From NCBI GenBank assembly GCA_964445355.1, contig CAYUKQ010000004.1, positions 1,028 to 65,027 of the forward strand: 64,000 nucleotides of DNA, written 5' to 3'. Position numbers and translations under genes: made by a program. Under the pieces are notes generated by a model. It was not told the DNA's origin and made no database searches. It was given only the letters and a program-made list of their open reading frames with translations. This document shows positions 41,058 through 63,708 of this stretch, in pieces (the stretch's first letter is position 1; every line of letters begins with the position of its first letter). This DNA comes from an uncultured Gammaproteobacteria bacterium. Lineage in GTDB: Bacteria; Patescibacteriota; Microgenomatia; CAYQLK01.

Positions 41058-41156
41058 TTTCCACATGCAACCAAATGCTTGACGATGTGTGGATAAATGC
41101 AATATATTCATATGGCGTTTAAGTGGAAATCAAAACTGTTTGCCCAGTTATTCACG
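41058..41156. promoter_or_regulatory. DnaA-box cluster upstream of dnaA (origin/autoregulatory region)
   Basis: TGTGGATAA at 41088-41096 is a perfect reverse box. TTTTCCACA at 41058-41066 and TTATTCACG at 41148-41156 are near-consensus. Confidence 0.6.
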
Positions 41157-41209
41157 AAAACAAAACACCTCCAAACAAACTATTGGTTGTAGACAAAAAG
41201 ATTAAATCA

Positions 41210-48896: not shown

Positions 48897-50759
48897 TTAC
48901 TGAATTATTTCCTGTGTGGCAGAAATTGGTTGCGAGTTGGTCTGATCTGTATCGGTTTGTGTAGTGCCGTCTATTTGGTTGGCAAGAATATCCTTAGGAT
49001 TGGACGTGACAAGCTTGTCTTCGTTTGGTGAGGCAATAACGCGCATTGCCACGTGTGAGCTACCGGCGAAAAACAATCCTTCACCAACGTCGGCACCGAG
49101 CAATAGGTGTTTTTCCCCATCAGTTAGGTAAAAGACTTCTGCAAGCTTGTCGATTGCCGCCGCAGACTGTTTGAGTAGTATTTGAATACTTGAGTTGGTA
49201 ACAATCGCCTTTCCGTATTCAGTACTGAGGAAGTCTTCGACATCCTGAGTAATGGTTGTTAATCCAAGGTAGTATTTGCGTGCACGCTTGGCGATCGAAT
49301 ACATAAAACTCGCGGAATCCGGATATTGCATCATGTACCAAGCCTCGTCGACGATGAGAATGCGTCGTTTTAGGTCTCTTTTTACTCTGGTCCAGATAAA
49401 ATCAAGAATAATGTACATGGCGATTGGGCGAAGTTCGGCTTCGAGGTTTTTGATCCCAAATACAGTAAAAGTATTACGTAGGTCCATATTAGAATATTGG
49501 TCAAAAATTCCAACCAAAGATCCTTTGACAAATTTTTCAATTCTTTCTGCAAGTGTTTTGGCTTGTGGTTCTTCCATGCCGATTAATACTTTGTATAAGT
49601 CTTCCATTAGCGGAGGTTGAAGTGTTTGTGTTTGAGGACTGTCAGCAACGATACCTTTGTTTTTGTAGGTTTGGACAAGTGCCCGATCCAGGATTGCGTC
49701 TTCGGTGGCGGATAGCTGTCCCATAATGACGCGGAATAAGCCGTGCAGTGAGAGGATTTTGAGTCCTAGTTCGTTTTCTTCTTCGTACGTTCCTGAGAGG
49801 TCGAAGGGGTTGATCTTGGTGTCGGACTTGAAATCGAAACTGATATATTCTCCGCCGATGGCGTTGCAGAGATTTTTGTACTCTTCTTCAGGGTCAATAA
49901 TGATGATTTCTGTGCCGAACATTAAATATCTTAAAGCTTCGAGTTTGGTCATGTAGGATTTTCCACCTCCGGATTTGGCAAAAACGACGGTGTTAGCGTT
50001 TTCTAGACTGAAACGATCAAAGATGATGAGTGAACCGTTGTGTTCATTAAGTCCATACATGATCCCCTCGTTGCTGGTTAAAGAGCTTGAAGTGAAAGGA
50101 AAGGTTGTTGCCAGTGAGGTGGTATCCATGTTGCGAGTAACAAGTAGTTTGTCGTGACCGTAAGGCAGGGTTGTTTTGAAGCCATCTTCCTGTTGTAGTG
50201 TGGCGTGTTTGGAGATAACTAAAATAGAACCTAACAGACTCTCAACCTGTTTAGTAATATTTACCAATTCCTCTTTGGTTTCTGCAGGGATGGTGATGTA
50301 GAGTCCAAATTGGAAGAATTTTTCTGCACCTTTGGCGATATTCTGCTGGAAGGTTCGAGCGTCATCAAGTGTAACCTCAAGGTTTGGGTCAATGATCTTG
50401 CCGCGCTGGACGTCCGTGGAGATCGTGGCTTCCATTTCGCCGATTTTGCGCTTCATGTCCTGAAGAACGGCTTGTGCGTCAACCGGATAGTGAAACATTG
50501 ATATTTCGAGTGTGTGGTTGAAATTGATTAATGGAGAGAGCCAGTTGGCGCCGACATAGCGCGGATAGCCAATTATAAAGAGTGTTTTGAAGTATGTTTC
50601 ACCAATTTTGATGAAGTCAAAGTCGACTTCAATGGCTGGTGGTGCAATGATATCGCGAACAGAAACCGTACCTTGCGCGACAGCTTTGGCTTGTGCTGAG
50701 ACTAATTCGGGAGCATTTTGAGGTGATTGGTTGGGATTTTTTTTGCCGAATAGTTTCAT
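48897..50759 (-). CDS. VirB4/TrsE/PrgJ-family type IV secretion ATPase
   Basis: KIGETYFKTLFIIGYPRYV...WLSPLINFNHTLEISMF is VirB4 N-region-like. Walker A (FAKSGGGKSY) and Walker B (ILIVDEAW) are present. Confidence 0.8.
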   Translation of the reverse strand: MKLFGKKNPNQSPQNAPELVSAQAKAVAQGTVSVRDIIAPPAIEVDFDFIKIGETYFKTLFIIGYPRYVGANWLSPLINFNHTLEISMFHYPVDAQAVLQDMKRKIGEMEATISTDVQRGKIIDPNLEVTLDDARTFQQNIAKGAEKFFQFGLYITIPAETKEELVNITKQVESLLGSILVISKHATLQQEDGFKTTLPYGHDKLLVTRNMDTTSLATTFPFTSSSLTSNEGIMYGLNEHNGSLIIFDRFSLENANTVVFAKSGGGKSYMTKLEALRYLMFGTEIIIIDPEEEYKNLCNAIGGEYISFDFKSDTKINPFDLSGTYEEENELGLKILSLHGLFRVIMGQLSATEDAILDRALVQTYKNKGIVADSPQTQTLQPPLMEDLYKVLIGMEEPQAKTLAERIEKFVKGSLVGIFDQYSNMDLRNTFTVFGIKNLEAELRPIAMYIILDFIWTRVKRDLKRRILIVDEAWYMMQYPDSASFMYSIAKRARKYYLGLTTITQDVEDFLSTEYGKAIVTNSSIQILLKQSAAAIDKLAEVFYLTDGEKHLLLGADVGEGLFFAGSSHVAMRVIASPNEDKLVTSNPKDILANQIDGTTQTDTDQTNSQPISATQEIIQ

Positions 50760-50766
50760 AGTTTGT

Positions 50767-51765
50767 TTAGCTTGTCGGAGATTTTAAGGCGTCTAAGGCT
50801 TTTAGAATATCAGGATCGATTGTTTCATTAGAGCTGGATGTGGGTGGTGTCTGACTAATAGCTGTGTTGCTGGTCGGTACTTGTTGGGGTGCCAAGTTGA
50901 AGGTTGATTGGTTGGCTATTGGTGAGTAGATTGTTTGGGTCGGTTCGGTTGGAGCCTGGTTGATTTGGGTAGTTTGAGGTTGTACTGGGGGGATATTTTG
51001 TATTGCCGGTTGTGGCTGATCAACAATTGGTTGTGCTGGGATGGTTGGGTTTTGGGTAATGGCAGCAGGTTGTGTAGGAAGTTCTTCGATCGGAGCTGAG
51101 ACTGCAGGCGTGACGATTGGTGTGGTGTAAGAGCCGGCCGCCTCGGTAATTTTTTGCAGACCGACCTCGCTAGGATTATAAATGTCGAAATACAATTCGA
51201 TAAGCTCTTGGGTGGTAAGCTGAAGTGTTTTGATGCCGAGTCTGCCAAATTGTTGGAATAAATGATCGCGTTTGGGATAGAGGTTGGTTTTGACGGTTTC
51301 GATATAAGTTTGCATATGGTTGCTGTCACGCTGGATGTTGCCGAGTGCGGCTCCTTTTACTCCGAGTTCAAGCGGATTAAATGGGATAATGACATAAAAT
51401 TTTTTTTCCAAAACGTTGTTTTGTTTAACAATTCCCTGGATGAACTGTAAGTATTCGTAAATTTGGCGTTTAATGTCTGGGTTGGCCTGGTGCGCTTCGG
51501 CTTGAGTAATAAGTTGGATGTAGGCGCTAAGATCGATTTTTTTGCTACGAATAACAATTTGTGTGGTGAAGTTTAGCGAGTTAAGCAGTCCCGCGTAAGA
51601 ATAAATAATCGAGTCCTGCTCATCGACCGAGAGTAGTTGAAAGTTGACGGCTGCGGTTTGGATGACGATGGCTGCTGAATTGTCCTTCAGAATTACAACA
51701 TCATCGCGAATATCAACAATCTCTAGATGTTCCTGGGTTGATGATTTAATCGGGGCAGATTTCAT
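50767..51765 (-). CDS. VirB4 N-terminal-domain-like protein with a P/Q/T-rich tail (possible split VirB4 partner)
   Basis: HLEIVDIRDDVVILKDNSAAIVIQTAAVNFQLLSVDEQ resembles the extreme N-terminus of Gram-positive VirB4/TraE proteins. Only 7 nt separate it from the ATPase gene. Confidence 0.45.
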   Translation of the reverse strand: MKSAPIKSSTQEHLEIVDIRDDVVILKDNSAAIVIQTAAVNFQLLSVDEQDSIIYSYAGLLNSLNFTTQIVIRSKKIDLSAYIQLITQAEAHQANPDIKRQIYEYLQFIQGIVKQNNVLEKKFYVIIPFNPLELGVKGAALGNIQRDSNHMQTYIETVKTNLYPKRDHLFQQFGRLGIKTLQLTTQELIELYFDIYNPSEVGLQKITEAAGSYTTPIVTPAVSAPIEELPTQPAAITQNPTIPAQPIVDQPQPAIQNIPPVQPQTTQINQAPTEPTQTIYSPIANQSTFNLAPQQVPTSNTAISQTPPTSSSNETIDPDILKALDALKSPTS

Positions 51766-51767
51766 GA

Positions 51768-53768
51768 TTAGGATGGTAAGTTTTTAGCTTTTATGGCAAA
51801 CGGATCGAGAAGTTTACCATGTGTTTCGAAGGCAATTGTATCAAAGTTTAGGCCTTCGAAATCGGTCTGAATTGTGTAGGTACCGTTGGGGAGCGGGGTG
51901 ACAGAGATAAATTGACCCAGGCCGTTGGTCTTGAATGCCCGAACAGGTTTGCCGGTGTGATCATAAACAGAAATCAGTGCGCCTTCGACCAGTCCGCCGT
52001 GATTGTCGTAGACAACACCATTGGGGGTGTTGGGGTGTTCGGAAAGATTGATTTTGACTTCGGCTTTGGGTGCTTGCTGGGCTTGGTTTTTTTGGTAGTT
52101 AAAAGGCTGAACGATACTGGCGTGCTTAGGGGCGGGATTGGAATCGGTTTGTACAGGAGCGGTTTGGGGTTGATCTTTGGGTTTTTCGACTAAATTTGGA
52201 CTTGGGGGGGCGATGAAATCCTTTGATGATTTTTGTTCAACCCGACCGGCTTTTAAGGGTTCAAAATCTTTAACTTTTTTGATTTGTTCAATAGCTATTC
52301 CCCCAGCGACCTTGATCGGTTGAATTGAAGGTGCAGTTTGGGGTTCGGTTTGCTCGAAGCGTTTTTTTAGTTCGCTGCTTACGTCGAATTGTCTCTCTCC
52401 TAGGATCGGTAGACGCGGTTTGGAGAAGTCGGGTGGACGATTTTTTAGTTTGCGAATCCTGGTATCGCCAATTCCTTGAAGGAATTGGAGCTCTCGACCA
52501 GGAATCATAATGACATTGTCACCAAAGTTAATATCGGAGGCGATTTGAGCTGAGATCGAAATTTGGCTATTAAGAGCAGAAAAATTGCTGGAGGGGTGCG
52601 GAGAAACGGTTGTTTTTTTGCCGAGGTTGGGGAGTAGGTGTTTTTGAAAAAGATCGGGAGTTGAGGTGTTGATACTTGATTCGGAGAGGTCTTTGTTTTT
52701 TTTGAATTCTTCCCAAGCTTGGGAAAATTTCTGCTGTTCTTGCTCGATACTGGCTTGTTGTTTAAGTATTTCAGCTTCTTTGGTTTTGATTTCTTCCTCA
52801 ATTTTTTTCTGAGCTTGTAGAACTTGGTCTAGTTCAGCAAGTTTTTGTTTGGAATCTTCGATCGTTTTGGCCCCATGCTGATTCGGGGCAGTGTTAGCGT
52901 GTTGGCTGTAGGGTAAGATTTTGGTATCAATATTAGGATTTTGCTGTGGTGACACACTGACGGTTGTGTTTTCGGGTCTTTTACTGATTATGATTTGAGG
53001 AGGAGTGGTCGGGTTTTTGTCAGATAATTGCTTGCTGAGCAGATCTAATTTTTTCTGTTTTTCTTCTTCGAGTTTTATCTTGGTTGTTTCAAGCTCTTTT
53101 TGTTTTTGGATCAAGGCTAATTCTTGCGCCTTAATCTCTTCAGCTTTGGCTTGAAGCTGAGACGATTTTGGTGCAGCTTGAATCGTGGCGTGTTTCTCCT
53201 TGATAGGGGCTTGGTAGGGGGAATAGGGGTTGAGTTGGTTGGCAAGTTGGTTTTGGGGCGGGATAGAAGACAATGGTGCGATAGTGGAGGCAAGATTACT
53301 GATTTCGGTTAGGTATTGGTTCTCTTGTTGGTCGAGAGAGTTGGTCGATTGAGTATGCGATTGTTTCGATAACAGTGTTTGTAAATCAGCGCGACTGAGT
53401 CGATTACCGGATAGTGTTTGTATGGCCGGATTAACAGGCGCGGGTTTTAGGAAATTAGCTTCAAGAAAGTAAGGAACGTGATTATCCTTGATCCAAATTC
53501 TCTGTGTAGGTCTGCTGATTGATCGGATAAAAGCTACGATCCATTTGTCTAGCGGTCTGCCCTGCAGTGGTACGGCGGCAAAAGTTATTCCGCCGATTAC
53601 AAAGATAGCGGCTATTGGGTAAGCGACGGTTTTTGGAAGAGGTGAAAAGTAGAAAATTGCAGCAATAATTCCTCCAAAAGCAACATAAATGAATTGGCGA
53701 ATGGTAAATGGCCCAAAAAGTTTGAACTCAAAAGTGGTTATATTTTGCGGTACGGCATGCTCTTCCAT
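51768..53768 (-). CDS. PrgI/VirB3-like two-TM N-terminus fused to a coiled-coil/low-complexity region and a C-terminal beta-sandwich domain
   Basis: TEFKLFGPFTIRQFIYVAFGGIIAAIFYF is PrgI-family-like. The middle is a Q/K/E-rich coiled coil and the C-terminus is prealbumin-like (GTYTIQTDFEG). Confidence 0.55.
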   Translation of the reverse strand: MEEHAVPQNITTFEFKLFGPFTIRQFIYVAFGGIIAAIFYFSPLPKTVAYPIAAIFVIGGITFAAVPLQGRPLDKWIVAFIRSISRPTQRIWIKDNHVPYFLEANFLKPAPVNPAIQTLSGNRLSRADLQTLLSKQSHTQSTNSLDQQENQYLTEISNLASTIAPLSSIPPQNQLANQLNPYSPYQAPIKEKHATIQAAPKSSQLQAKAEEIKAQELALIQKQKELETTKIKLEEEKQKKLDLLSKQLSDKNPTTPPQIIISKRPENTTVSVSPQQNPNIDTKILPYSQHANTAPNQHGAKTIEDSKQKLAELDQVLQAQKKIEEEIKTKEAEILKQQASIEQEQQKFSQAWEEFKKNKDLSESSINTSTPDLFQKHLLPNLGKKTTVSPHPSSNFSALNSQISISAQIASDINFGDNVIMIPGRELQFLQGIGDTRIRKLKNRPPDFSKPRLPILGERQFDVSSELKKRFEQTEPQTAPSIQPIKVAGGIAIEQIKKVKDFEPLKAGRVEQKSSKDFIAPPSPNLVEKPKDQPQTAPVQTDSNPAPKHASIVQPFNYQKNQAQQAPKAEVKINLSEHPNTPNGVVYDNHGGLVEGALISVYDHTGKPVRAFKTNGLGQFISVTPLPNGTYTIQTDFEGLNFDTIAFETHGKLLDPFAIKAKNLPS

Positions 53769-54028: not shown

Positions 54029-56311
54029 ATGCCAGACACAGAGCGACATACAATTAGTCTAGAAGACCAGGCGAGGGTTGAAAATCAACCCTTGGCGAGT
54101 ACGCAAGCCGAGGCTCAATTGTTTGAAATTATCGATAGAACCATGGGGGTTGAGCCGCAGAATTCGGCGCAAACTGAGTACATAGAACAGGTTGGTTATA
54201 TACGAGAATTGAACGCGCTTGAGTCAGAACTGGCTGGTGTACCTCAAGAACAAGTGGAATTGCGAAGGCAACTTGAGGCCAGGAGAAATGAATTGCGGAC
54301 AAATCTTGAGGTAATGGTTAGGACGGAAAAGGACAAGGAAAGATATGTTGATGTGAGTTTGAGGCTGTTTACGAGGCTTCAAACACAAAAAGAAACAGCT
54401 TTGCTTACTGTTAAAACATTTACCGGATTGAGACCTAATGCTAATGAAATTATGGGGCCGATCAATGGTTTTCGAGACAGGATTGAGTCCTTAAGAAAAG
54501 AAGGTGATCCAGGTTCTCAAGAACGAAAAGATGCGGAACTAAAAGCTGCAGCTTTGGAGTATGAGTTCAGTAAAGTCAGAGCGGAGGTTGAAGAGGCAAT
54601 TAAGAATTATAATCCCGTAAGGTCGTTGAGGTTGAATGCTTTGACGGAATTAGAATTAGCGGAAGATCAGCGTGTGGCTAGGGACAATCCGCAGATCAGA
54701 GAATTGTTAAAAATTCTTAACGATCCTGAGCTGAGCCAGAGATTTGGTAAAGAAGTGGAAGATTTTAGAGATGAATATAACGCTTTGGTGCGAATTCACA
54801 ATTTTGCGGTTGCGGGGAGAGGTAAGGGGGCGGTTGAAATTACTACTGCTTTGGGTGAGTTAGATCAGGCTGCGCTGGTAGAGCTATTTGGGGCAGATGA
54901 ATTGAGACAGGATATTATTGGTGCGTATATTGTTGATCGGAATGTTTTTTCAAGATTAGACGGTTTGATTTTGAATCAAGATGAGGCAGAAGCTGTTCTT
55001 GAGGAGACTACAGTGTTAGGGAACAACAAGCGAACTTTTGTGCGGACTAGTGTGCCTGATCCGAATAATCCCGACAGAGAGATTGATTTGGAGACACTGT
55101 ATCGAACCACAAGCTCGGAAGCTGAAAAGAAAGCATTAATAGATAGATACGCAGATAAACTAACAGGTGGATATAAGACAAAAAAGGCCTGGGAAAAGAA
55201 GTATGTTGATGATGTGTTGAGTGCGGAATTTTTTACAGAGGAACAGAAGAGTGATTTTAGAAGGCGTGAGGGTATCGATGAGAGTGTGGCTGATGCTGGA
55301 TTAATTGCAATGATTGAGGCTAGTTATGAGTACAAGTCCAGAAAAATAATTTTAGGACAGCATTTGGATAATATGGTTGGTTTTTTAGAAACGACCGTCG
55401 CTCCAATGGCTATTAAGCCGATTAAAGTTAAAACGCTCGAACCCTTGAAGAATGGGGGTACAGAGGCTTATATATTCGCCGGCAAGTATAAGGATAATCC
55501 TTTGGTTAAAGCCAGATATCCGCAGGATGTGCTTGAGTCGGGCGGTAAGGTGAATTCGAGAATTATCGATATAACAAACCCAATATTTGATAAAGGGTTT
55601 TATAAATACACCGATCCAGGATTTAAGTTGATGACGGAGATTTTTAAAATGGAAGAACCAACTGTTGACCAGGGGCAGGATAAGGTTGTGGCTTGGCTGG
55701 ACGGTTTTAAGTCTGCCGATGTGTTGAGTAGGATTCGAGAGAATCCTGAAATAGTGAATAAATTAAAAGACGATGTTTATAAAGATGCGGTTACGGTGCA
55801 ATCGTCGGAGATGTATGACAAGTTCGAAGCTTTTCAGAGAGAACCCAGTGAAGAGTCGGCAAAGGCGCTGATGGCGAGTTATTTTTCTAAAACCCCTGAG
55901 GATCGGCGCAGTTTTAATATGGATGTAATTGAGGCACTACTGAAGTACAAAATGAAGATTAATGGTATTTATGCCTTTAAGGATTTCAATGAGCGAGGAA
56001 ATTGGGGAGCAAGAAGGGCCGAAGATTATATTAAGAAAGCCAGGGAAGCGGGGCTAATCGGGTTAAGGGAAGAAAATGAGTTGATGCGACGAATTTTTAC
56101 GGGAGCTTCACTGCCAATTGGTTTTGGTAGGAGAATTCAGATTACTCCAGGAGGGCGGTTCGGTAAGGAAGTTTTTAGTAAACCTTTGGAGTTTGCTGGG
56201 GCATATACGAAGGAAGTTTTTGGGATTAAAAATATTATGAGTACAGGAAAGAGTTGGCTCAAGACTTTGTTTAATGAAAGTGTGTCCCAGATCAAGTCTG
56301 ATTTGAAATAA
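54029..56311 (+). CDS. large soluble charged protein of unknown function, on the opposite strand inside the T4SS-like block
   Basis: 760 aa with no TM or signal peptide. No family recognised. Confidence 0.4.
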   Translation: MPDTERHTISLEDQARVENQPLASTQAEAQLFEIIDRTMGVEPQNSAQTEYIEQVGYIRELNALESELAGVPQEQVELRRQLEARRNELRTNLEVMVRTEKDKERYVDVSLRLFTRLQTQKETALLTVKTFTGLRPNANEIMGPINGFRDRIESLRKEGDPGSQERKDAELKAAALEYEFSKVRAEVEEAIKNYNPVRSLRLNALTELELAEDQRVARDNPQIRELLKILNDPELSQRFGKEVEDFRDEYNALVRIHNFAVAGRGKGAVEITTALGELDQAALVELFGADELRQDIIGAYIVDRNVFSRLDGLILNQDEAEAVLEETTVLGNNKRTFVRTSVPDPNNPDREIDLETLYRTTSSEAEKKALIDRYADKLTGGYKTKKAWEKKYVDDVLSAEFFTEEQKSDFRRREGIDESVADAGLIAMIEASYEYKSRKIILGQHLDNMVGFLETTVAPMAIKPIKVKTLEPLKNGGTEAYIFAGKYKDNPLVKARYPQDVLESGGKVNSRIIDITNPIFDKGFYKYTDPGFKLMTEIFKMEEPTVDQGQDKVVAWLDGFKSADVLSRIRENPEIVNKLKDDVYKDAVTVQSSEMYDKFEAFQREPSEESAKALMASYFSKTPEDRRSFNMDVIEALLKYKMKINGIYAFKDFNERGNWGARRAEDYIKKAREAGLIGLREENELMRRIFTGASLPIGFGRRIQITPGGRFGKEVFSKPLEFAGAYTKEVFGIKNIMSTGKSWLKTLFNESVSQIKSDLK

Positions 56312-56335: not shown

Positions 56336-58045
56336 TTATCTTCGATTTTCGTATGGGTTAGCGGTACGGTTGTTTTGCTGGGCGGCTCTTTGTGGGGTCG
56401 TGGTTGGTCCGGCTGGCCCCGGCCTACCTGGAGTGATCGGACTTGAAGCTCCTTCCTGACGGGACAGTCGGTCATATCTGCGCTGAGCACTCCATGGGTT
56501 GAAGGTATTGTTGAGTTTTTCCTGTCCAAAATCATTTACTCTGGTTTTGGCGCGACTAGCAGCACCATTGAAAGGTTGTCTGGCCATTCCCCATCCTGCG
56601 CCAGCGACGGCGCCAGCAGCACCGCCAATTGTTCCGCCAAGTCCACCGCCTTTGACTTTGAAGGCGTCTTGAGCGATCTTGGCTGCTGAAGGGATACCTA
56701 AGAGGATGCCAATACCAATAAGCGACTTAAGTGCGTTAGCGCCGTCTTCGTCAGTGAAGCCGCCCAGAAGTGGGGCATTCCAACCGTCGCCTTCAGTAAT
56801 TGTGGCTTCACCGGAGGTAATGCGGTCTTTGCCAACACCCATAAAATATGCAGCAAAAATAATCATCAGAATTGTAATAACAAAGGTAGCAAGTTGAGCG
56901 GCGATGTTGCGGATCCATGGACCAAAACCCGGCATGTTTGGCAGTACGCCGATACCGATCATGAGTGGACCAAAGATGGTGTAGAAAAAGACTTTTACGT
57001 AAGCGATCAGAAGCATGAAGAAGATACGGAAGGTTGCAACCAGCATCATAATGCCGATGACGGCGACGGCGAGCGCAGAAAGAATTTTGGAACTGAATTT
57101 TTCGATCAAGTCTGGCAAGCCGAATTGATCGATCGCTCCGCTGATAATGTCATCATTACTATTAAATATCCCGGAAATGTTTTTCAAAAAGAGATCTTTG
57201 AGCATAAAAGTAAAGACATTTCCTTCGTAATAAATATGATTAGAGTCGGCTTTGGCTACATTTTCGCTAGAGAGGATTTGGATCATGATGGCGATAAAAA
57301 AATTCATAAGATCGATCATTAGACCGACGATGGCATAGCTGAAGGTAATTAGAATTAAGCTAATAATGATTTTCGGAAGGACGGCTTGGATCGAAGCAAC
57401 GGAATTTGAGTTAAGGCGTTGTCTAAAAATGATCATGAAACCAATAATGATGAAAAAGATGACGTATAGAAGTAGGGTAAGGTTGCGAAAAGTGGTCCAA
57501 AGCGCTTGAGTTGGTTTCAGTCCGTCGTAGCCGCTTTGGGCGGCTAAAGTTTCTCCGGTGATTTTGGATTTGATATCCGCAATATATTGAACCCCAGAGG
57601 CTGGTTCTTCGGTATAAAGCAGAGAAATACTTTTCATTAAAAACGGTATTGCGGCGGCAGGTTGACAGTCGGTGGCGCCTGAGTTGATACATTCAAGTTC
57701 TTCATCGGTAGCCGGCAAGCCAGTGATTTGGCGGTTAATGCCGTAAGCGAGGTTATCCATTAGTCCGAGATTGAATTTTTGAAGGTTTACATCCTCTTCA
57801 TCAAGGGCATTTTTGTACTGACAGATAGATTGTTGGTAGGGCTGGACGGTTTTACCTACGCCCTGTTGGGGGTTTGAGATCGCGGAGCTGTCTGGACCGG
57901 CTGGAGCTGCGGATCCGGAGTCGGTTTCACATTCAAAAGGATCTTCTACTTGGGCTTGGGCGTTTTTGAGGCTGAAAAAGACGGTAAAAAGGGTGAATAT
58001 TGCAATGGTGGACAGGACAAGCTTAAGTCGCATTAGTTTAGGCAA
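56336..58045 (-). CDS. VirB6/TrbL-like polytopic type IV secretion channel protein
   Basis: Signal peptide, about 6 TM helices and a C-terminal Gly/Pro-rich tail, next to VirB4-like genes. Confidence 0.55.
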   Translation of the reverse strand: MPKLMRLKLVLSTIAIFTLFTVFFSLKNAQAQVEDPFECETDSGSAAPAGPDSSAISNPQQGVGKTVQPYQQSICQYKNALDEEDVNLQKFNLGLMDNLAYGINRQITGLPATDEELECINSGATDCQPAAAIPFLMKSISLLYTEEPASGVQYIADIKSKITGETLAAQSGYDGLKPTQALWTTFRNLTLLLYVIFFIIIGFMIIFRQRLNSNSVASIQAVLPKIIISLILITFSYAIVGLMIDLMNFFIAIMIQILSSENVAKADSNHIYYEGNVFTFMLKDLFLKNISGIFNSNDDIISGAIDQFGLPDLIEKFSSKILSALAVAVIGIMMLVATFRIFFMLLIAYVKVFFYTIFGPLMIGIGVLPNMPGFGPWIRNIAAQLATFVITILMIIFAAYFMGVGKDRITSGEATITEGDGWNAPLLGGFTDEDGANALKSLIGIGILLGIPSAAKIAQDAFKVKGGGLGGTIGGAAGAVAGAGWGMARQPFNGAASRAKTRVNDFGQEKLNNTFNPWSAQRRYDRLSRQEGASSPITPGRPGPAGPTTTPQRAAQQNNRTANPYENRR

Positions 58046-58088: not shown

Positions 58089-59273
58089 CTATTCCTTGCG
58101 AACCTCAATATCTCGTGGGGTGATTGTGCGCAGAATAATTTCTTTGGCTGTTTGAACACCACCTAGATATCCGGCCCAAACCTGATTGCTGGAGCCAAAA
58201 CCTTTAAGTCTGGTTGAGGCAGTGTCGGAAAATTCGCCTGAATTATGCTGGTTCCAGAAGTCCCCAGGACCAAATAATCTTAGACCGCCTGATTTTTTGC
58301 GAACAAGCGACTTCCATACAACATCAACGTAAGGAATTCGTGAGGAAATAAGTGAGCCGTTTTTGGTGAACTGTACAGATTCAGCAGCAGAGCCGGAGGC
58401 AGTGTAGAGGATAATATATTCCTCTCCCGGACCTTCACGACCTTCAGGTTTGGCAGGATCGGGGTTGAAATCTTTGGATTCTTTGACCAGGTCGTTAGGT
58501 GTAGTGACTTGCTGTAGTATCTGTGAAAGTGCAGCAAGTCTCGCAACTGAAGGTACGCCAATCAATAGATCCCTGCCTGGCTGACAAGACTCCGATTTGT
58601 CTTGATTGTCCGAGGTTGAAGAGATACAACCACGAGATGTCCAGTTGGTGACCAGAGGAAATTTTGCCCAGTACCTTCCCCATGTTTGATTCCAGGTTTC
58701 GTTTGATACTCCACCCTCAAGTCCCGGAGGTTGGGGTTTGCCCCAGGCGTCATAAAGATCTTTGATCGTTCGATAGTGTTGTCCGCAGTAGTCACCGTAT
58801 TCAGCAGCAGCTTCTTCGAGTTTGGTTGTGCCGTTTTTGGAAAGCTGATAAATAGTTTCAACGTATTTTTGTCTTAATAGATCGATGTTATTTTTGGGAA
58901 GGACTTTGATGAGTGGGCCGTTAAAATTGTTAAGCTCGTTGTTGGTGAGTTTTGAGAGGTCGGTTTTGCGATGTGAGTCGGTTTGAAACTTGCCTTCTAG
59001 ATAATTAGCCATTGAGCGCGCAAAAGGCAGAACAGGCTTATTGACTACAGCAGATACCCCCGAGGCGTTGACGACTGCACGTGGAGGCTGGTAGTCGTTT
59101 TCTGATTTGTTTTCGAGCTCATTCCAGCTAGGTATTTGATAAGTTGGGTTAGTACTATCCGGTGGCGCAGGTTGAGTACAAATTTTTGGTGGTGCCGCAA
59201 AAGTGTTTTTTGGAAGGAAAAAGAGTGTACTAGTTAAGCTTAGACAAAGACTTAGGCAGAAAAGTTTTTTCAT
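58089..59273 (-). CDS. secreted Cys-containing protein (hypothetical T4SS-associated)
   Basis: Signal peptide (LTSTLFFLPKNTFA) and several Cys residues. No family recognised. Confidence 0.4.
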   Translation of the reverse strand: MKKLFCLSLCLSLTSTLFFLPKNTFAAPPKICTQPAPPDSTNPTYQIPSWNELENKSENDYQPPRAVVNASGVSAVVNKPVLPFARSMANYLEGKFQTDSHRKTDLSKLTNNELNNFNGPLIKVLPKNNIDLLRQKYVETIYQLSKNGTTKLEEAAAEYGDYCGQHYRTIKDLYDAWGKPQPPGLEGGVSNETWNQTWGRYWAKFPLVTNWTSRGCISSTSDNQDKSESCQPGRDLLIGVPSVARLAALSQILQQVTTPNDLVKESKDFNPDPAKPEGREGPGEEYIILYTASGSAAESVQFTKNGSLISSRIPYVDVVWKSLVRKKSGGLRLFGPGDFWNQHNSGEFSDTASTRLKGFGSSNQVWAGYLGGVQTAKEIILRTITPRDIEVRKE

Positions 59274-59292: not shown

Positions 59293-59706
59293 TTAGATGT
59301 TGCATAGGGTACCTGCCGGAGTGTAGTTGAGCAGGTTGATGCCTGTTACTAATTCAAGCGATTTGAAGATGGCATATACAAGCAAGAGGACCACGACTCC
59401 GATGAGTGCGGTTGTGATTGCGCCGCGAGCTTGGCCGGCGCCACCTGGATTACCGAAGGAGAAAATATATTTGTACCCAGCGTAAATGAGCATCAGGAAA
59501 AAAGCGATCCCTGCGGCCGGGGCAATGATCTTGATCGTTTTGGCGACGATCCCGAGCAAATCACAAAGCTGCGATGGGGTTTCGCTATCGCTACCGCCTC
59601 CTCCGGGTGGACCGCCACCTCCGGTACTGGCGGCGAAGGCTGTTTGACTAACTAAAAGCAGTAAGAGGACATAAACAATTGTGATTGAGAGCGCTCGATA
59701 TTTCAT
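59293..59706 (-). CDS. pilin-like small membrane protein, paralog 1 (signal peptide plus two-TM hairpin)
   Basis: Signal peptide, a Gly-rich segment and two TM helices separated by the loop FSFGNPGGAGQARGAI. Confidence 0.5.
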   Translation of the reverse strand: MKYRALSITIVYVLLLLLVSQTAFAASTGGGGPPGGGGSDSETPSQLCDLLGIVAKTIKIIAPAAGIAFFLMLIYAGYKYIFSFGNPGGAGQARGAITTALIGVVVLLLVYAIFKSLELVTGINLLNYTPAGTLCNI

Positions 59707-59821
59707 AAAAACTAACTCTTATTAAGAATGATACCAATAACTAATGACTTAAATCCAAAACAATACCGGTCGGGAACGAAATCCGTCCAGACCGATATGT
59801 TTTTTGGGAGTAAAACAATTA

Positions 59822-60202
59822 CTAATTTCCAAGAGTAGGAATAGTAAAGTTGTCTCCAGTAATAATGCTGACTCCGAGAATAGCTTGGACAAGCATAATT
59901 AAGGCTAAGGCCAAAACTACAACCACCAAACCTACGAGTGCGTGGATTACTTGCTGTCTGGCGGCGTTGACTTTTCCTGGATCACCACTTGAGAGGATCC
60001 ACTTGATACCACCAATGAGTAACCAAATAAAAGCAATAAGGAATGCGGCAAAAATAATAGCTTTAATGACGAAACTTAGGATCGCGCCAGGTTCGGCGAC
60101 GTTAACGCTGTATGGGTTGAGGTTGATTTCGTCTGCTAAGACGTTGCTTGTCGCGGCAATTGTGCCAGCGACTGACGAGGCTGCGGCAATTAACTTTTTT
60201 AT
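59822..60202 (-). pseudogene. pilin-like paralog 2 with ATA at the expected start codon (non-canonical start or point-mutated pseudogene)
   Basis: Hand translation gives (I)KKLIAAASSVAGTIAATSNVLADE...LIGGIKWILSSGDPGKVNAARQQVIHALVGLVVVVLALALI...GN*. It has the conserved loop motif and a signal-peptide-like N-terminus but no ATG, GTG or TTG. The SD (AAAGGGGGTGA) sits 9 nt upstream of ATA. It is absent from the ORF track for this reason. Confidence 0.4.
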
Positions 60203-60226
60203 AACGACTCACCCCCTTTCAAGGTT

Positions 60227-60676
60227 TTAAAACGGAAGCGTTGGGTTTGTAATTGATCCCGCGTCGAGAGTGAAGACCTTTTCGACCAGGGTCAGGATCG
60301 AGAATGCGAGAATGATAACTACCAGTCCGACGATTGCGTAAACGATCTTTTTTTGAGCGGCGGCGGTTTTGTTTGGCTCGCCGTTACTGGTAATGTAGTT
60401 GATTCCGCCGATTAACAGCCAGATAAAAGCCATAAGGAATCCGGCAAAAATCAGAATCTTAATGAAAAAAGTAATTAGCGTCCCGACTTGGGATGCCTCT
60501 GTGGGAATACCGGCAGGCGGACAAATCTCACCGAGCGGGTTGTCGCTCGATCCTTGTGATCCGGTCGTGCATGCAGCGATCACGTTGACACTCGAAATAA
60601 TTAACATTGCGATTAAGCCTGGGAAGATAATAGCTAAGTGTTTGAGATTGTGTTGTAGTGATCTGAGCTGTTTCAT
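60227..60676 (-). CDS. pilin-like small membrane protein, paralog 3
   Basis: Loop motif LIGGINYITSNGEPNKTAAAQKKIVYAIVGLVVII. Confidence 0.5.
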   Translation of the reverse strand: MKQLRSLQHNLKHLAIIFPGLIAMLIISSVNVIAACTTGSQGSSDNPLGEICPPAGIPTEASQVGTLITFFIKILIFAGFLMAFIWLLIGGINYITSNGEPNKTAAAQKKIVYAIVGLVVIILAFSILTLVEKVFTLDAGSITNPTLPF

Positions 60677-60677
60677 T

Positions 60678-61100
60678 TTAAAGGTTGGGGTTATTGATAA
60701 ATAGTGCCTGTACTGTATACATTATCACAAAGGTCAGGATCATCACGACCATACCAACCACAGCAAAAGTAATGTTTTTGCGTGCGTCAGCGGCTTTGTT
60801 TGGGTCACCACCTGAGGTGATGAATTTGATACCGCCGATCACAATATAGACTAGGGTAAAAATCGCACCGAGACTAAAAATAATACCCAGAGCGACCGTG
60901 CCAATATCACCAACTGATTGAAAAGTTTCGGCTGGCTGGAATTCTTCGTTGATGTCCAGCCCCATAAGGCTAAGCGCTGAAGTGGGGATAATGGCGGTGG
61001 TCAAGATTTTTTTAAGTAACATAAACGTTAAGCACTGATTGGGAAATAAATGCTGTGATTGCCCAAGCAATGCAGATAATAATAAGACCGATAACTGCAT
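60678..61100 (-). CDS. pilin-like small membrane protein, paralog 4 (true start probably the internal Met, MLLKK...)
   Basis: Loop motif VIGGIKFITSGGDPNKAADARKNITFAVVGMVVMIL. The annotated start overlaps paralog 5. Confidence 0.5.
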   Translation of the reverse strand: MQLSVLLLSALLGQSQHLFPNQCLTFMLLKKILTTAIIPTSALSLMGLDINEEFQPAETFQSVGDIGTVALGIIFSLGAIFTLVYIVIGGIKFITSGGDPNKAADARKNITFAVVGMVVMILTFVIMYTVQALFINNPNL

Positions 61101-61344
61101 TGATAATCATGGATTTTCCTCCAGAAACACTGTTGGGGTTGCCGCCGCTAATAATGATGCGAAAAGCACCGATCGCAATCAGAATAATTGACACCAGAAA
61201 GGCAAATGGGAATAAAAAATAGACCATCGCGTTACTGATAAAACCGCCAATTGAGTTAACAGCCCCGGTTTCGTCAGAAGTAATAGGGTTGCCTACTCCA
61301 GAGTTGCCGAGTTGGATGGCGATGTGTTTGAGTTCGTTGATCAT
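61012..61344 (-). CDS. pilin-like small membrane protein, paralog 5 (no obvious signal peptide)
   Basis: Loop motif AIGAFRIIISGGNPNSVSGGKSMIINAVIGLIIICIA. Confidence 0.45.
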   Translation of the reverse strand: MINELKHIAIQLGNSGVGNPITSDETGAVNSIGGFISNAMVYFLFPFAFLVSIILIAIGAFRIIISGGNPNSVSGGKSMIINAVIGLIIICIAWAITAFISQSVLNVYVT

Positions 61345-61350
61345 AGACAG

Positions 61351-61959
61351 TTATGGGGTTGGGTCATAAATATCTGACTGACTTTCGATACCGGGCAGAT
61401 TAAGGATGTTGGCACCGATTATTTCGAGGATAGATACAGCGAAGACAATAAACAATAGTCCTGAGATGGCAGAGATGATCATTTCACGGCCCTGGTTGAT
61501 TTTGGTAGGGTTGCCTGCAGAGGCGACGATTTGGACTGCACCAAAGCCAGCGAGAATAAAAGCAATAACTGCGGCGATCGAGATTGAGACTAGGAGAATT
61601 GTGGTAACGGTTTGCCCGCCACTATCACTAACGTCGAACTCTAAGATTCCTCCAATAGAACAGGTTGGTTTGCAGGGAATCGAGGAGTCTCCGCCAGACC
61701 CACCGCCAGTGGTTTCTCCGCTTCCTACACCTGCACCGCCAGCAAGGGCAGTTTCGCATGAAGCTTGTGAGCTGTAGTGAGGAAGATCACCTCCGAACGA
61801 GGCAGAAATACATTGAACTGTGCCGCCGACGTTACGAATAAACCAATAGGTGGCTGCATTGACCTCATTTGGTTTTTGATTAAGAGAGGAAAACAATAAA
61901 TTAGCAAGGACAAATATTGCCAGGATGAATGTTTTTCTGAACAGTTTAGTTTTGGGCAT
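61351..61959 (-). CDS. pilin-like membrane protein, paralog 6, with an extra Cys-containing extracellular domain
   Basis: Signal peptide, a 100-aa Cys/Gly-rich domain, then the conserved hairpin GFGAVQIVASAGNPTKINQGREMIISAISGLLFIVFA. Confidence 0.5.
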   Translation of the reverse strand: MPKTKLFRKTFILAIFVLANLLFSSLNQKPNEVNAATYWFIRNVGGTVQCISASFGGDLPHYSSQASCETALAGGAGVGSGETTGGGSGGDSSIPCKPTCSIGGILEFDVSDSGGQTVTTILLVSISIAAVIAFILAGFGAVQIVASAGNPTKINQGREMIISAISGLLFIVFAVSILEIIGANILNLPGIESQSDIYDPTP

Positions 61960-61977
61960 AGAAGGTATAATTTAACA

Positions 61978-63708
61978 ATGACAAAGTTCCCTGCCTGCAG
62001 TCAAGTTTTATTCAAACACTCAAAGCTATTCTTGATAAGTATTGTAATTACCGCGCAGATTTTTAGTCTGGTGTCAGTGAAAGTTGTATGGGGTTTGGAT
62101 TTAAATAATAGTGATGAAATCGCCAAGGAAATAGAGAAGCTGAGCAAAGATCTTAAAGCGAGTCAGGACGCAACAGTGCCTTTGGAGCAGAAGCTTAAGA
62201 GTTTGAATACCCAGATCACATCGATCCAGGGGAAAATTAATAAGTTCACGGCGGATATCAATAATGCGGAGAAACAAATTAAACAAAAAGAGGCTGATTT
62301 GGAAAAGCAAAAGGCGATTTTGGCTGCAACCGTGAGAAGTTATTACATTAAGACTTTTGTGGATACACCTTTATTAACATTGCTTTCTTCTAATAATGCG
62401 ACGGATGTAACAAGAGAGCTGACATTTAGAAGTAAGACGACAGATAGAGATAAAAATTTGATTGTAACGATCACTGGAGATATTAATGGTCTGAAAAAAG
62501 ATAAAGAGGATTTGGCAAAGGAAAAAACCAAGCTGGCCGGATTGCAGGTGTCTTTGAATAAAGAGGCTGATTTTTATGCCAAAGAGGTGGCAGGAGCAAA
62601 GAAATATCAAACCGATCTATCAAATCAAATCGCTTCATTGACCGCCAGACAGAACGAAATTATTGCCAGTAAGAGTGGTACATTCACTACCGGTGTTGGT
62701 GATGTGCCACTAGCAGATGATCCAAATGCAAGTGTGAACTTTAACCCCGGATTCTCAAAAGCATTTGCGGCATTTTCATTCGGCGCTTACACACATCGCA
62801 AAGGAATGAGTCAATATGGAGCTAAAGGCAGAGCTGATGCCGGTCAAAATTTTAAGACGATTTTAAGTAAATATTACGGCAAGGAGCCGAATGGTAAGGA
62901 TACCGGGGGAAACATTAAAGTATCTGGATATGGTGAGATGGATTTTGAAACAAAGTATTTGTATGGAATTGCGGAAATGCCCTCGAGTTTTCCAGAAGAG
63001 GCGTTAAAGGCGCAAGCGGTGGCAGCTAGAACTTATGCTTACCGGTATAAGAAGGATGGTTTGGAAATCTGCACGACCGAAGCTTGTCAGGTGTTTAATA
63101 AATCCAAGTCTGATAGTCCGCCGGATAAGTGGAAGAAGGCGGTGGATGATACTAAAGGACAAGTTATTGAAGATGTGGTGACGTATTACTCTTCAACAAC
63201 TGGTGGTTATTTGACGACCTCAGGCTGGGATACCGGTTGTGGTTCAAAAGATTGTTGGACAGGTGATGCTTTTGAAAAAAAAGCTAACAGTCCGTGGTTT
63301 TATAAAGCTTGGTATACGCAAAGTTATTCGGTTAGCTCAGATAAGTGCGGTAAGAGTAACCCTTGGCTGAATAACGAGGAGTTCTCGGATATTTTGAATG
63401 GGTATTTGCTGATCAATAATAATCACCCGGATTCCGGTAGAGTGACACCCGTGTCTTCCTGCTGGGGCGGATCACCTTTGTCGATGTCAGAGATGAGGGA
63501 GAGGGCCGGTCAGTATGGAGGAGCGTTCACTGCAGTTAATTCGGTGTCGGTAAGTTATTCAAATGACGGTTCTACGGCTAGTGTTACGATCAATAGTAAC
63601 CGAGGAACTGATACGATTTCAGGGTCAAAGTTCAAAGAGGCGTTTAATCTTAGGGCCCCGGGTTGGATTTCGATAAAATCTCCATTGTTTAATATCGAAG
63701 TAAAGTAA
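61978..63708 (+). CDS. SpoIID/LytB-domain protein with an N-terminal TM and coiled-coil
   Basis: N-terminal coiled coil and C-terminal SpoIID/LytB motifs (HRKGMSQYGAKGRA, AQAVAARTYA, YYSSTTGGY). Confidence 0.65.
   Translation: MTKFPACSQVLFKHSKLFLISIVITAQIFSLVSVKVVWGLDLNNSDEIAKEIEKLSKDLKASQDATVPLEQKLKSLNTQITSIQGKINKFTADINNAEKQIKQKEADLEKQKAILAATVRSYYIKTFVDTPLLTLLSSNNATDVTRELTFRSKTTDRDKNLIVTITGDINGLKKDKEDLAKEKTKLAGLQVSLNKEADFYAKEVAGAKKYQTDLSNQIASLTARQNEIIASKSGTFTTGVGDVPLADDPNASVNFNPGFSKAFAAFSFGAYTHRKGMSQYGAKGRADAGQNFKTILSKYYGKEPNGKDTGGNIKVSGYGEMDFETKYLYGIAEMPSSFPEEALKAQAVAARTYAYRYKKDGLEICTTEACQVFNKSKSDSPPDKWKKAVDDTKGQVIEDVVTYYSSTTGGYLTTSGWDTGCGSKDCWTGDAFEKKANSPWFYKAWYTQSYSVSSDKCGKSNPWLNNEEFSDILNGYLLINNNHPDSGRVTPVSSCWGGSPLSMSEMRERAGQYGGAFTAVNSVSVSYSNDGSTASVTINSNRGTDTISGSKFKEAFNLRAPGWISIKSPLFNIEVK

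Follow-up and report, generated by a model that had tools for sequence, protein, structure and literature searches.

What are the six small, adjoining genes that lie between positions 59293 and 61959 of the DNA analysed here, a stretch of 64 kb that we call the window, and what would a bacterium do with six versions of one protein? An earlier note, made from the letters alone, had likened them to VirB2/TrbC-type pilins of type IV secretion systems (T4SSs) and had seen in their number either major and minor structural subunits or antigenic diversification. We consider it quite probable that they are VirB2-like pilin subunits of a chromosomal, MPF-FATA-like T4SS encoded next to the replication origin of a member of the Microgenomatia, assembled as proposed below. 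The architecture as such was published between 2023 and 2025, and the locus is a further example of it rather than a new category.

Six adjoining genes of one pilin family

As the earlier note had described, with lengths of about 110-200 aa, the minus strand of this region holds exactly six consecutive paralogous genes, encoding proteins of 110-202 aa (Table 1). A six-frame scan of the whole 64-kb window with a family HMM (449 hairpin units, mostly from unrelated organisms) matched the same six ORFs and no others, with E-values of 1e-14 to 1e-22, which excludes chance; the family HMM gives E<=5e-14 for all six paralogues. Each of them also matches the Pfam family PF18895 (T4SS_pilin), four above its gathering threshold of 26.6 bits (p1 29.4, p2 31.8, p3 31.9 and p4 31.0 bits) and two below it yet significantly (p5 23.5 and p6 17.6 bits), and the p3 homologues P0001-P0013 without exception carry PF18895. 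The NCBIfam model NF045849 ("pilin-like conjugal transfer protein") matches the six weakly: p4 alone reaches the cut-off of 40 bits, and the others score 17-30 bits. Judged by these scores, we regard the window paralogues as relatives, not equivalogs, of NF045849.

Table 1. Features of the pilin array and of the neighbouring secretion genes (window coordinates)
Feature	Position	Strand	Description
p6	61351-61959	-	202 aa; first gene of the array in transcription; PF18895 E=0.004, family HMM E=5e-14
p5	61012-61344	-	110 aa; PF18895 E=5.7e-5, family HMM E=7e-19
p4	60678-61022	-	114 aa; PF18895 E=2.7e-7, NF045849 40.1 bits
p3	60227-60676	-	149 aa; PF18895 E=1.4e-7
Extended Shine-Dalgarno GAAAGGGGGTGA	60209-60220	-	6 nt upstream of p2 ATA, 9 nt from GGGGG core; sequence reading
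p2	59822-60202	-	126 aa; PF18895 E=1.5e-7; most conserved copy
Conserved stem-loop	59755-59798	-	ATATCGGTC...GACCGGTAT, then TGTTTTGG; in the p2-p1 gap; RNA fold z=-2.5
p1	59293-59706	-	137 aa; PF18895 E=8.7e-7, PF04956 TrbC E=0.037
Secreted 394-aa protein	58089-59273	-	19 nt downstream of p1; no family match; N-terminal signal-like segment only
Polytopic 569-aa membrane protein	56336-58045	-	candidate divergent VirB6-like channel subunit; hydropathy, position
PrgI (VirB3-like)	51768-53768	-	N-terminal membrane domain (PF12666 E=1.4e-10, residues 6-91) and ~570-aa extension
TrsD-like	50767-51765	-	related to VirB4 N-terminal part; NCBIfam TrsD E=1.7e-5, VirB4_plasma E=4e-6, both sub-cut-off
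VirB4-family ATPase, P-loop part	48897-50759	-	PF19044 P-loop_TraG E=1.6e-30; AAA_10 E=4e-12
1171-aa protein	45321-48836	-	C-terminal M23 peptidase domain, PF01551 E=6e-8

The family is very large (91,985 clusters at 50% identity and E<=1e-3). Paralogues in the window share 24-32% identity over their full length and 18-46% over the hairpin core, values in keeping with the divergence reported for Patescibacteria pilin arrays (mean 25%, maximum 54%; PMC12102498). The same study defines an array as at least two pilin genes, in tandem or one gene apart, near virB4 in a Patescibacteria genome; the six genes here stand in tandem, 8.5-13 kb and within about eight genes from virB4. From p6 to p2 they are tightly spaced, with gaps of -11 to 24 nt, and p2 and p1 are 115 nt apart. 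The ATG of p4 overlaps the stop codon of p5 (ATGTTACTTAA), a start position that agrees with the orthologues. A mechanically called ORF of 140 aa for p4 was discarded as an upstream extension unsupported by them.

Hydropathy profiles and AF2 models bear out a C-terminal hydrophobic hairpin common to all six: two segments of about 30 aa with a short polar loop between them, modelled in p3 as helices 60-96 and 101-143 with a hairpin pLDDT of about 90. The loop motif singled out in the earlier note is real and survives alignment of the six, yet it is less uniform than had been claimed, with the full form [LIV]IGGI.[FWY]I[TS]S.G[DE]P.K in p2, p3 and p4 only and degenerate forms in p1, p5 and p6. 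Invariant throughout are the S, G and P of the loop and an A..G at the start of helix 2, the conserved core reading S-x-G-[DNE]-P ... A..G.

The statement that most of the proteins have signal peptides also stood: p1, p2, p3 and p6 have clear ones and p4 a weak one, whereas p5, like all its orthologues, has none and only a hydrophilic N-terminal tail of about 32 aa. That of p1 is of the AFA|A type; p1 also has a Gly/Pro-rich N-terminus and a cysteine pair flanking the hairpin, Cys48 ahead of helix 1 and Cys135 behind helix 2, which is kept in L004, L005 and L007, three of the related loci considered below. In p3 the signal peptide is long and ends in VIAAC, with a second Cys at position 52. 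The six have the VirB2-type layout of leader, two hydrophobic helices and short basic loop, with the leader absent in p5 and weak in p4.

A secretion cluster beside the replication origin

VirB4-family ATPases are signature proteins of T4SSs. The array lies in one operon-like block with a monoderm-type T4SS comprising VirB4, TrsD, PrgI/VirB3, an M23 hydrolase and a VirB6-like candidate; the VirB4 P-loop, TrsD, PrgI and M23 genes fall within 12 kb, and the block adjoins dnaA-dnaN and rnpA-yidD-yidC. The system is MPF-FATA-like in having TrsD and PrgI/VirB3, and the ORFs scanned, a set that leaves aside nine of 123-183 aa, contain no relaxase or T4CP family. VirB4 is 87-90% identical in related species, the TrsD-like orthologue in locus L001 carries the TraC-like domain PF26593, and the PrgI extension ends in a CarboxypepD_reg-like domain (PF13620, E=7.9e-5). 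By analogy, the 1171-aa M23 protein is a candidate cell-wall hydrolase of the T4SS (VirB1/PrgK role), since an essential peptidase lies downstream of virB4 in Southlakia epibionticum (PMC12102498).

Two further proteins belong to this neighbourhood. By hydropathy, the 569-aa protein has a signal or transmembrane segment, an external domain (about 150 aa), five or more hydrophobic segments and a Gly-rich tail; it is syntenic and 75-83% conserved, has no Pfam or PDB match, and its architecture and position suggest a VirB6-like subunit. The 394-aa protein matches no entry of Pfam, NCBIfam or the PDB; it keeps its place in all related loci and is 78-83% conserved in L004-L007.

By its GroEL the organism, an ultrasmall bacterium, belongs to the class Microgenomatia of the Patescibacteria (CPR), the best named relatives being Blackburn-, Beckwith-, Gottesman- and Curtissbacteria and Microgenomates. 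This qualifies a further remark of the earlier note: the literature does bear out a usual lack of pilins in Gram-positive T4SSs (PMC12857230, PMC12102498), but the organism is not a classical Gram-positive, and its group is the one among monoderms for which such pilin arrays have been published as an exception.

The closest known parallel is the cluster SEML1_0006-0019 of S. epibionticum ML1 (Wang et al. 2023, PMC10633639; Quinonero-Coronel et al. 2025, PMC12102498), which like ours has six divergent, PF18895-type tandem pilins. They have been described as an essential "series of predicted pilin subunits" (PMC10633639) and as six structurally conserved, sequence-divergent VirB2-like pilins (PMC12857230). 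A survey of CPR genomes counted 441 arrays of 2-11 pilins, with a mean identity of 25% and abundant in Microgenomatia, and found CPR T4SSs often near dnaA (PMC12102498). Our locus resembles these arrays in its pairwise identity of about 25%, in its class, in encoding VirB4, TrsD, PrgI/VirB3, a VirB6-like protein and a peptidoglycan hydrolase alongside, and in adjoining dnaA/dnaN with no relaxase or coupling protein nearby. It differs from S. epibionticum in lineage: the only experimentally studied case, in which essentiality was shown, belongs to Saccharimonadia. The texts of PMC10633639 and PMC12102498, as searched, mention neither an ATA start conserved in the paralogue that varies least nor a stem-loop after that gene, and they describe no hypervariable Cys-domain pilin, no single-chain multi-hairpin relatives and no strict 1:1 orthology of six pilins across species.

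The resemblance to VirB2/TrbC that the earlier note had proposed is supported by PF18895, by the T4SS context and by the wider family. PF04956 (TrbC/VirB2) is matched by 23 of 62 diverse family members, with a best E-value of 2.8e-14; none of the six window paralogues reaches its gathering score of 27.9 bits, p1 coming nearest at 14.7 bits and the others giving no match. Small alignments compared by hhalign with VirB2/TrbC yielded nothing (probability 1.7%). A deep family alignment compared with seven annotated VirB2/TrbC proteins of conjugative plasmids scored 24.1 (P=3.9e-4, probability 35%) over 63 columns, the whole hairpin being in register, against 8.4 +/- 1.5 (maximum 12.5) in the sole control, 30 column shuffles. 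A PDB sequence search returned nothing relevant.

With the conjugative VirB2/TrbC/TraA pilins (PF04956; T-pilus, RP4 and F pili) the six share small size, a leader peptide, two hydrophobic helices, a short basic loop, a place in a VirB4-containing cluster and a weak, in-register profile similarity. Unlike the pilins of Gram-negative T4SSs, they occur without an outer membrane or a VirB7/9/10 core, as six paralogues instead of one, and with their own conserved S-x-G-D/N-P-x-K loop, which is about seven residues longer; pili of some VirB2/TrbC/TraA members involve cyclisation and/or lipid, features of which the window proteins give no sign. The Mbov_0395 family of Mycoplasma ICEs (NF045849) offers another pilin-like protein with two TM segments, likewise from a monoderm T4SS of the MPF-FATA type, but a single-copy one on a mobile conjugative element, in contrast to a chromosomal six-gene array without conjugation genes. 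VirB2 paralogues of Bartonella, Anaplasma and Rickettsia are likewise tandem, divergent and found in host-dependent bacteria; those are Gram-negative intracellular pathogens whose variation is tied to immune evasion, whereas the present set is stable across species. Pam pili (PamA/PamB, bioRxiv 10.64898/2026.03.03.709456) are CPR-specific surface filaments that occur in both Saccharimonadia and Microgenomatia and have been linked to host contact, but with their Ig-like domains, donor-strand exchange and chaperone-usher-like operon they differ entirely in fold and assembly and are unrelated to the hairpin pilins.

Unequal conservation of the six copies

All six paralogues have 1:1 orthologues, in identical order, in four related species (L004-L007). 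Orthologous cores are 51-94% identical, as against 18-46% for paralogous ones, and N-terminal parts are always less conserved than cores. Since orthologues resemble each other far more than paralogues do, and five species agree in the number and order of the genes, the duplications are old, with each copy under its own purifying selection. Read from these alignments, the conserved set favours fixed, specialised subunits rather than a fast-diversifying cassette array, and it leaves antigenic diversification of the entire array the less favoured idea.

The alternative of major and minor subunits fits better. The core of p2 is 92-94% identical across species, compared with 51-88% for the other paralogues; p2 also has the only strong Shine-Dalgarno sequence of the six (GAAAGGGGGTGA, identical in L004, L005, L006 and L007) and is followed by a conserved stem-loop. 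On these sequence features, p2 is likely to be the major subunit. The gene, which the earlier note had translated by hand, has no ATG, GTG or TTG start; its frame opens at an ATA (60202-60200) that is kept with its upstream context in all four other species. An ATA start normally means poor translation, and it sits awkwardly with p2 as the most abundant subunit. In addition, p2 is the fourth gene of the operon, so that it could be expressed more strongly only with the help of an internal promoter or of RNA processing, neither of which was seen. The stem after p2 is kept in the four other species, with both-side changes at 4 of 14 pairs; not called by a generic terminator scan, the stem-loop is a candidate attenuator/terminator or mRNA stabiliser.

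At the other end of the array, p6 opens with a signal peptide and a variable N-terminal domain (about 75 aa), which a Gly-rich linker joins to the hairpin. It is the "last" gene to which an extra Cys/Gly-rich domain had been attributed, correctly, being last in plus-strand coordinates and first in transcription. Among 14 orthologues the hairpin is nearly invariant, the N-terminal domain is hypervariable, residues C50, C68, C96 and C100 are invariant, and some copies have a further stretch of about 95 aa inserted. A low-confidence AF2 model shows a beta-hairpin and a helix followed by two long helices. We take p6 as a candidate host-contact subunit. Across the array, fast variation is limited to the presumably exposed N-terminal parts, that of p6 above all.

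The family also includes natural single-chain polypilins, in which one signal peptide precedes 4-6, and in the extreme case 17, hairpins. An uninterrupted ORF of this type (L016, 1777-3435) lies inside a pilin array, which indicates that hairpins can work covalently bundled; one polypilin is on an apparently archaeal contig. Their internal repeats look like recent internal duplications, not like six ancient classes.

Proposed assembly and its alternatives

We propose that each pilin enters the cytoplasmic membrane as a hairpin of helices whose two ends lie outside, while the short, positively charged loop with its conserved S-x-G-D/N-P-x-K motif faces inside; most copies would use their Sec signal peptide, and for p5 YidC is the probable route. 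Acting with PrgI/VirB3 and the polytopic VirB6-like protein, the VirB4/TrsD ATPase would extract the hairpins from the membrane and build them into a pilus-like tube or a short conduit across the cell wall. In such a structure p2 would be the bulk subunit and the other five low-copy, specialised ones, with p6 showing a disulphide-bonded, fast-evolving N-terminal domain at the surface, probably as a host-contact element. The structure may serve an epibiotic lifestyle, through host-cell contact or material exchange, rather than conjugation. A pilus on a monoderm T4SS would be unprecedented (PMC12857230), and a review calls the role of Patescibacteria T4SSs "completely unknown" (PMC11665869).

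The same proteins could instead form a heteromeric ring or stalk of the T4SS channel, of fixed stoichiometry and embedded in membrane and wall, with each paralogue at its own position and no open-ended pilus. Retention of the six 1:1 in the same order is what a complex of defined positions predicts, and the tight coupling from p6 to p2, the existence of polypilins and the count of six in S. epibionticum as well (PMC12857230) point the same way. However, arrays of 2-11 pilins across CPR (PMC12102498) show that no stoichiometry is universal, the polypilin repeats seem recent, p2 stands out in conservation as expected of a bulk subunit, and linked hairpins also fit a helical filament, because the linkers lie outside; we hold this arrangement to be rather unlikely. 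Only tentatively, and with a similarly small chance, can one go further and read the six paralogues not as a major pilin with spares but as subunits with set positions in a heteromeric bundle or conduit of hairpins, an architecture that the polypilins of 4-17 fused hairpins would mirror, with p2 output set by its unusual, conserved ATA start and 3' stem-loop.

Much less probable still is a diversification or host-range cassette of interchangeable major pilins, used alternatively or evolving fast, as proposed for Bartonella/Anaplasma VirB2. The low identity between paralogues, the weaker conservation of the presumably exposed N-terminal parts and the hypervariable, insertion-bearing domain of p6 would suit it, and the idea has been raised before (PMC12102498). 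Yet orthologous cores are far more alike than paralogous ones in a set of constant number and order, the architectures differ (p5 lacks a signal peptide and p6 has an extra domain), which speaks against interchangeability, and our scan turned up neither repeats nor any invertible element or promoter switch. As for unrelated two-TM proteins mimicking pilin topology, the earlier note had named a profile match to a holin-like or bacteriocin immunity family as evidence against pilins. Searches returned T4SS_pilin for all six instead, with no holin or immunity family at a meaningful E-value (the best, PF07332 with p3, had E=0.44); synteny with VirB4, TrsD and PrgI is conserved, the window holds no phage or bacteriocin context, and we give this explanation hardly any credence.

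Gene callers truncate or miss p2 with its conserved ATA start, and pilin counts in surveys may consequently be too low. The single-chain, multi-hairpin relatives represent a natural experiment on hairpin packing, and a position-specific bundle, if true, would show a new way in which monoderm episymbionts build a surface organelle from a T4SS. In the only genetically tractable Patescibacterium, both the T4SS and the pilin array are essential, and the present locus provides a clean Microgenomatia example with testable handles: p2 as candidate major subunit, p6 as candidate host-contact subunit and an evolutionarily fixed set of paralogues.

The pilin array and its family

Six consecutive paralogous genes at 59293-61959 had been proposed in the earlier note, and a six-frame HMM scan of the 64-kb window returned exactly these six ORFs, here p1-p6 with p6 first in transcription, separated from p6 to p1 by 6, -11, 1, 24 and 115 nt. 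The C-terminal part of each encoded protein is a pair of hydrophobic stretches, each about 30 residues long, with a short polar loop between them; the AlphaFold models render the pair as two long antiparallel helices (pLDDT of about 90 for p3). In the alignment of the six, the loop residues S, G and P and the A..G opening helix 2 are invariant, while the long loop motif described in the note is intact in p2-p4, and p1, p5 and p6 have degenerate forms of it.

Each protein gives a match to Pfam PF18895 ("Type IV secretion system pilin"), above the gathering score for four and below it for p5 (E=5.7e-5) and p6 (E=0.004). They also match NCBIfam NF045849, the pilin-like conjugal transfer protein of Mycoplasma ICEs, a likeness that is mostly below the cut-off. 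With a profile made from the six paralogues and close homologues, the family comprises 91,985 clusters (50% identity) at E<=1e-3.

The link of these proteins to classical VirB2/TrbC is indirect. None of p1-p6 reaches PF04956 (best, p1 with E=0.037), which is reached by 23 of 62 diverse family members (best E=2.8e-14). In hhalign, small alignments gave no signal against VirB2, and a marginal one appeared with the deep alignment of 449 hairpin units only: compared with seven annotated VirB2/TrbC genes of conjugative MPF_T plasmids, the entire hairpin aligned in register (score 24.1, P=3.9e-4, probability 35%), against 8.4 +/- 1.5 for thirty column shuffles and 11.1 for the reversed alignment. 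The VirB2 loop is about 7 residues shorter than that of the CPR pilins. The six-paralogue profile, run against PDB sequences, gave CD81 and SLC13 noise and nothing else, and fold searches are without value here, given the thousands of unrelated structures that match any two-helix hairpin.

Positions of the array, its neighbours and related features
Feature	Sequence	Position	Strand	Remark
p6	window	61351-61959	-	202 aa
p5	window	61012-61344	-	110 aa
p4	window	60678-61022	-	114 aa
p3	window	60227-60676	-	149 aa
p2	window	59822-60202	-	126 aa
p1	window	59293-59706	-	137 aa
p2 ATA and Shine-Dalgarno site	window	60200-60222	-	
Stem-loop 3' of p2	window	59763-59798	-	59755-59798 with T-rich tail
SpoIID-domain gene	window	61978-63708		divergent from p6
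VirB6-like membrane protein	window	56336-58045	-	569 aa
Soluble protein	window	54029-56311	+	760 aa
PrgI/VirB3-like protein	window	51768-53768	-	downstream of array
TrsD-like protein	window	50767-51765	-	downstream of array
VirB4 P-loop ATPase	window	48897-50759	-	downstream of array
M23 peptidase	window	45321-48836	-	1171 aa; downstream of array
dnaN	window	42832-43962		beyond M23 peptidase gene
dnaA	window	41123-42586		beyond dnaN
GroEL	window	21288-22916		
p2-start ATA site	L004	7744-7752		
p2-start ATA site	L005	1776-1784		
p2-start ATA site	L006	7787-7795		
p2-start ATA site	L007	7827-7835		
Six-hairpin protein P0148	L016	1777-3435		
17-hairpin protein P0155	L017	8001-13328		1775 aa
Pilin with Cys-rich extension	L015	1033-1620		

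Genomic neighbourhood and source organism

A gene for a secreted 394-aa protein lies 19 nt past p1 and is followed by that of a 569-aa polytopic membrane protein, beyond which come the T4SS genes and the M23 peptidase gene. On the far side of dnaA/dnaN we found rnpA-yidD-yidC-jag, and this stretch is the replication origin region. The remainder of the window is housekeeping (GroEL, MetRS, TsaD, PBP1, FemAB and a class I aminoacyl-tRNA synthetase with a LeuRS-type editing domain), and the window ORFs scanned yielded neither a coupling protein nor a relaxase. Scans for tRNA genes and for Rfam families at the gathering threshold were empty throughout the 64 kb, although this is the origin region of a small genome.

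In architecture the 569-aa protein resembles VirB6, and its place after the array is conserved. It has no Pfam, NCBIfam or PDB match, and PDB searches with the 394-aa and 760-aa proteins likewise gave nothing; since the PDB search was empty, its VirB6 label is drawn only from architecture. VirB6 homologues have been described as "scarce" in Microgenomatia (PMC12102498), and the 569-aa protein may therefore be a divergent VirB6.

The VirB4 function is divided (48897-53768, minus strand) between the TrsD-like protein of 332 aa and a P-loop protein of 620 aa. In the 666-aa protein that carries it, the PrgI/VirB3-like domain occupies no more than the first ~90 residues; farther along are a long coiled-coil-like stretch of low complexity and, at the C-terminus, a CarboxypepD_reg-like domain. 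Amid the T4SS genes, the opposite strand encodes a soluble 760-aa protein, rich in charged residues and with no family match, whose position is kept in the four related loci L004-L007, yet which diverges fast (34-68% identity).

The SpoIID-domain gene is divergent from p6, with start codons 18 bp apart (61960-61977), a layout also present in the related locus L001. Because of this spacing, the promoters of both genes must lie inside the neighbour's coding sequence, or their mRNAs are leaderless. Between 56000 and 62300, promoter-like sites were at chance level (11 against 9.8 expected), and 2 terminator-like sites were found against 6.5 expected.

The nearest named GroEL relatives (65-70% identity) are Candidatus Blackburn-, Beckwith-, Gottesman- and Curtissbacteria, Microgenomates and "Patescibacteria group", and this places the source in the Patescibacteria/CPR, class Microgenomatia. 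In NCBI the related MAGs CAYOLO01, CAZKYX01, CAYGIG01 and CAYROP01 (L004-L007) are titled "uncultured Gammaproteobacteria bacterium", a label that looks wrong, since GroEL and the whole gene content point to Microgenomatia. One related contig, at 660,813 bp, is on the scale of a whole CPR genome.

Start of p2 and features of single array members

p2 is the conservation outlier among the six: its core, the two-helix hairpin, keeps 92-94% identity as far as the most distant species, in which the other paralogues fall to 51-68%. It is also the only gene of the array with a strong Shine-Dalgarno site. An ORF lister misses it because it lacks an ATG, GTG or TTG start. Past an in-frame TGA, its frame reads GTC GTT ATA AAA AAG..., giving (M)KKLIAAASSVAGTIAATSNVLA|DE, a signal peptide of typical form. 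The ATA stands 9 nt past the G-run of the extended Shine-Dalgarno site GAAAGGGGGTGA, and ATA, Shine-Dalgarno site and spacer are kept in all four other species, that is, in five species altogether. We rejected a GTG start with a +1 frameshift on the A6 run; the ATA is favoured because it stands 9 nt after the GGGGG core, whereas the GTG touches the Shine-Dalgarno site without a spacer. The public gene call of a p2 orthologue is truncated to 77 aa; with such a non-canonical start, p2-class pilins may thus be missed or shortened in surveys based on gene calls.

Directly 3' of p2, in the gap before p1, there is a stem-loop followed by TGTTTTGG. The stem is kept in the four other species, and 4 of its 14 pairs have changed on both sides (ATATCGGTC/GACCGGTAT, ATATCGACCTGGA/TCCAGGTCGATAT, ATATCGATTGC/GCAATCGATAT). 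It has no Rfam match and was not called by the generic terminator scan; we regard it as a candidate attenuator or stabiliser.

The orthologue alignment of p6 shows a hairpin that hardly varies and, N-terminal to it, a hypervariable domain carrying four invariant cysteines, a pattern that would be expected of an exposed recognition element. Four p6 orthologues (P0143, P0145-P0147) have an extra insert of ~95 aa. The AF2 model of p6 is poor in the N-domain and linker (mean pLDDT 62) and unfit for fold search. In p1, Cys48 immediately precedes helix 1 and Cys135 immediately follows helix 2; three of the four species (L004, L005, L007) retain both, L006 having instead two cysteines in the C-tail. 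Both ends of p1 are predicted to be outside, and we speculate that a disulphide ties them together. The signal peptide of p3 ends in a lipobox-like VIAAC and a second cysteine stands at position 52. L006 has lost the two cysteines jointly, which would fit a disulphide pair at least as well as a lipoprotein. In an unrelated metagenomic array (L015), one pilin carries a C-terminal Cys-rich extension with 8 cysteines in ~55 aa. Accessory Cys-rich domains on a single array member may thus recur among such arrays.

Assembly model and alternatives

The PF18895 matches and the T4SS context support the reading of the earlier note, VirB2/TrbC-type T4SS pilins, and we hold this assignment of family and context to be nearly certain; that these are unrelated two-TM proteins is extremely improbable. 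An essential T4SS has been described in Southlakia epibionticum (Wang et al. 2023, PMC10633639), and a survey with PF18895 and PF04956 (Quinonero-Coronel et al. 2025, PMC12102498) reported arrays with a mean identity of 25% and T4SSs often adjoining dnaA/dnaN and rnpA. The present locus agrees point by point with these Patescibacteria arrays. The six-pilin array type is thus already published, and the note overestimated its surprise value.

We consider it likely that the array specifies a pilus-like assembly with p2 as bulk and five minor subunits, and infer its steps as follows. The hairpins would insert N-out/C-out with the basic conserved loop inside, and VirB4/TrsD with PrgI and the VirB6-like protein would extract them and build them into a pilus-like tube or a short conduit across the wall. 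p2 would be the bulk subunit and the other five specialised minor subunits, with p6 displaying its variable domain for host contact. The main weaknesses of this model are that nobody has so far demonstrated a pilus on any Patescibacteria T4SS, that an ATA start is odd with high p2 expression, and that p2 is fourth in the operon, with no internal promoter detectable in the scan.

The four species of L004-L007 have the same six genes in unchanged order, and in each the 394-aa and 569-aa genes come next. This strict co-retention would also suit a heteromeric bundle of fixed stoichiometry rather than a polymer, which we consider a clearly less probable product. The same holds for polypilins, single chains with several hairpins: the family profile matches best to chains in which one signal peptide precedes 2-17 hairpins. 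In the proteins P0148-P0156 the hairpins number 4-6, and up to 17; the six of P0148 form an uninterrupted ORF within an array of single pilin genes. P0155 has 17 hairpins and is probably archaeal, because its gene adjoins that of ribosomal protein L39e. A metagenome scan for P0148 gave only the unrelated array of separate pilin genes L015, and its contig was found by exact match; in the survey text as searched (PMC12102498), we found no mention of polypilins. On the other hand, core identity is 51-94% between orthologues and 18-46% between paralogues; the duplications are therefore old and each copy individually constrained, which argues against a set of interchangeable, rapidly diversifying cassettes. 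Together with the fixed order in four species, this speaks against the antigenic diversification suggested in the note, and we regard an array diversified for alternative use as improbable. The value of this array lies mainly in the side observations that it offers.
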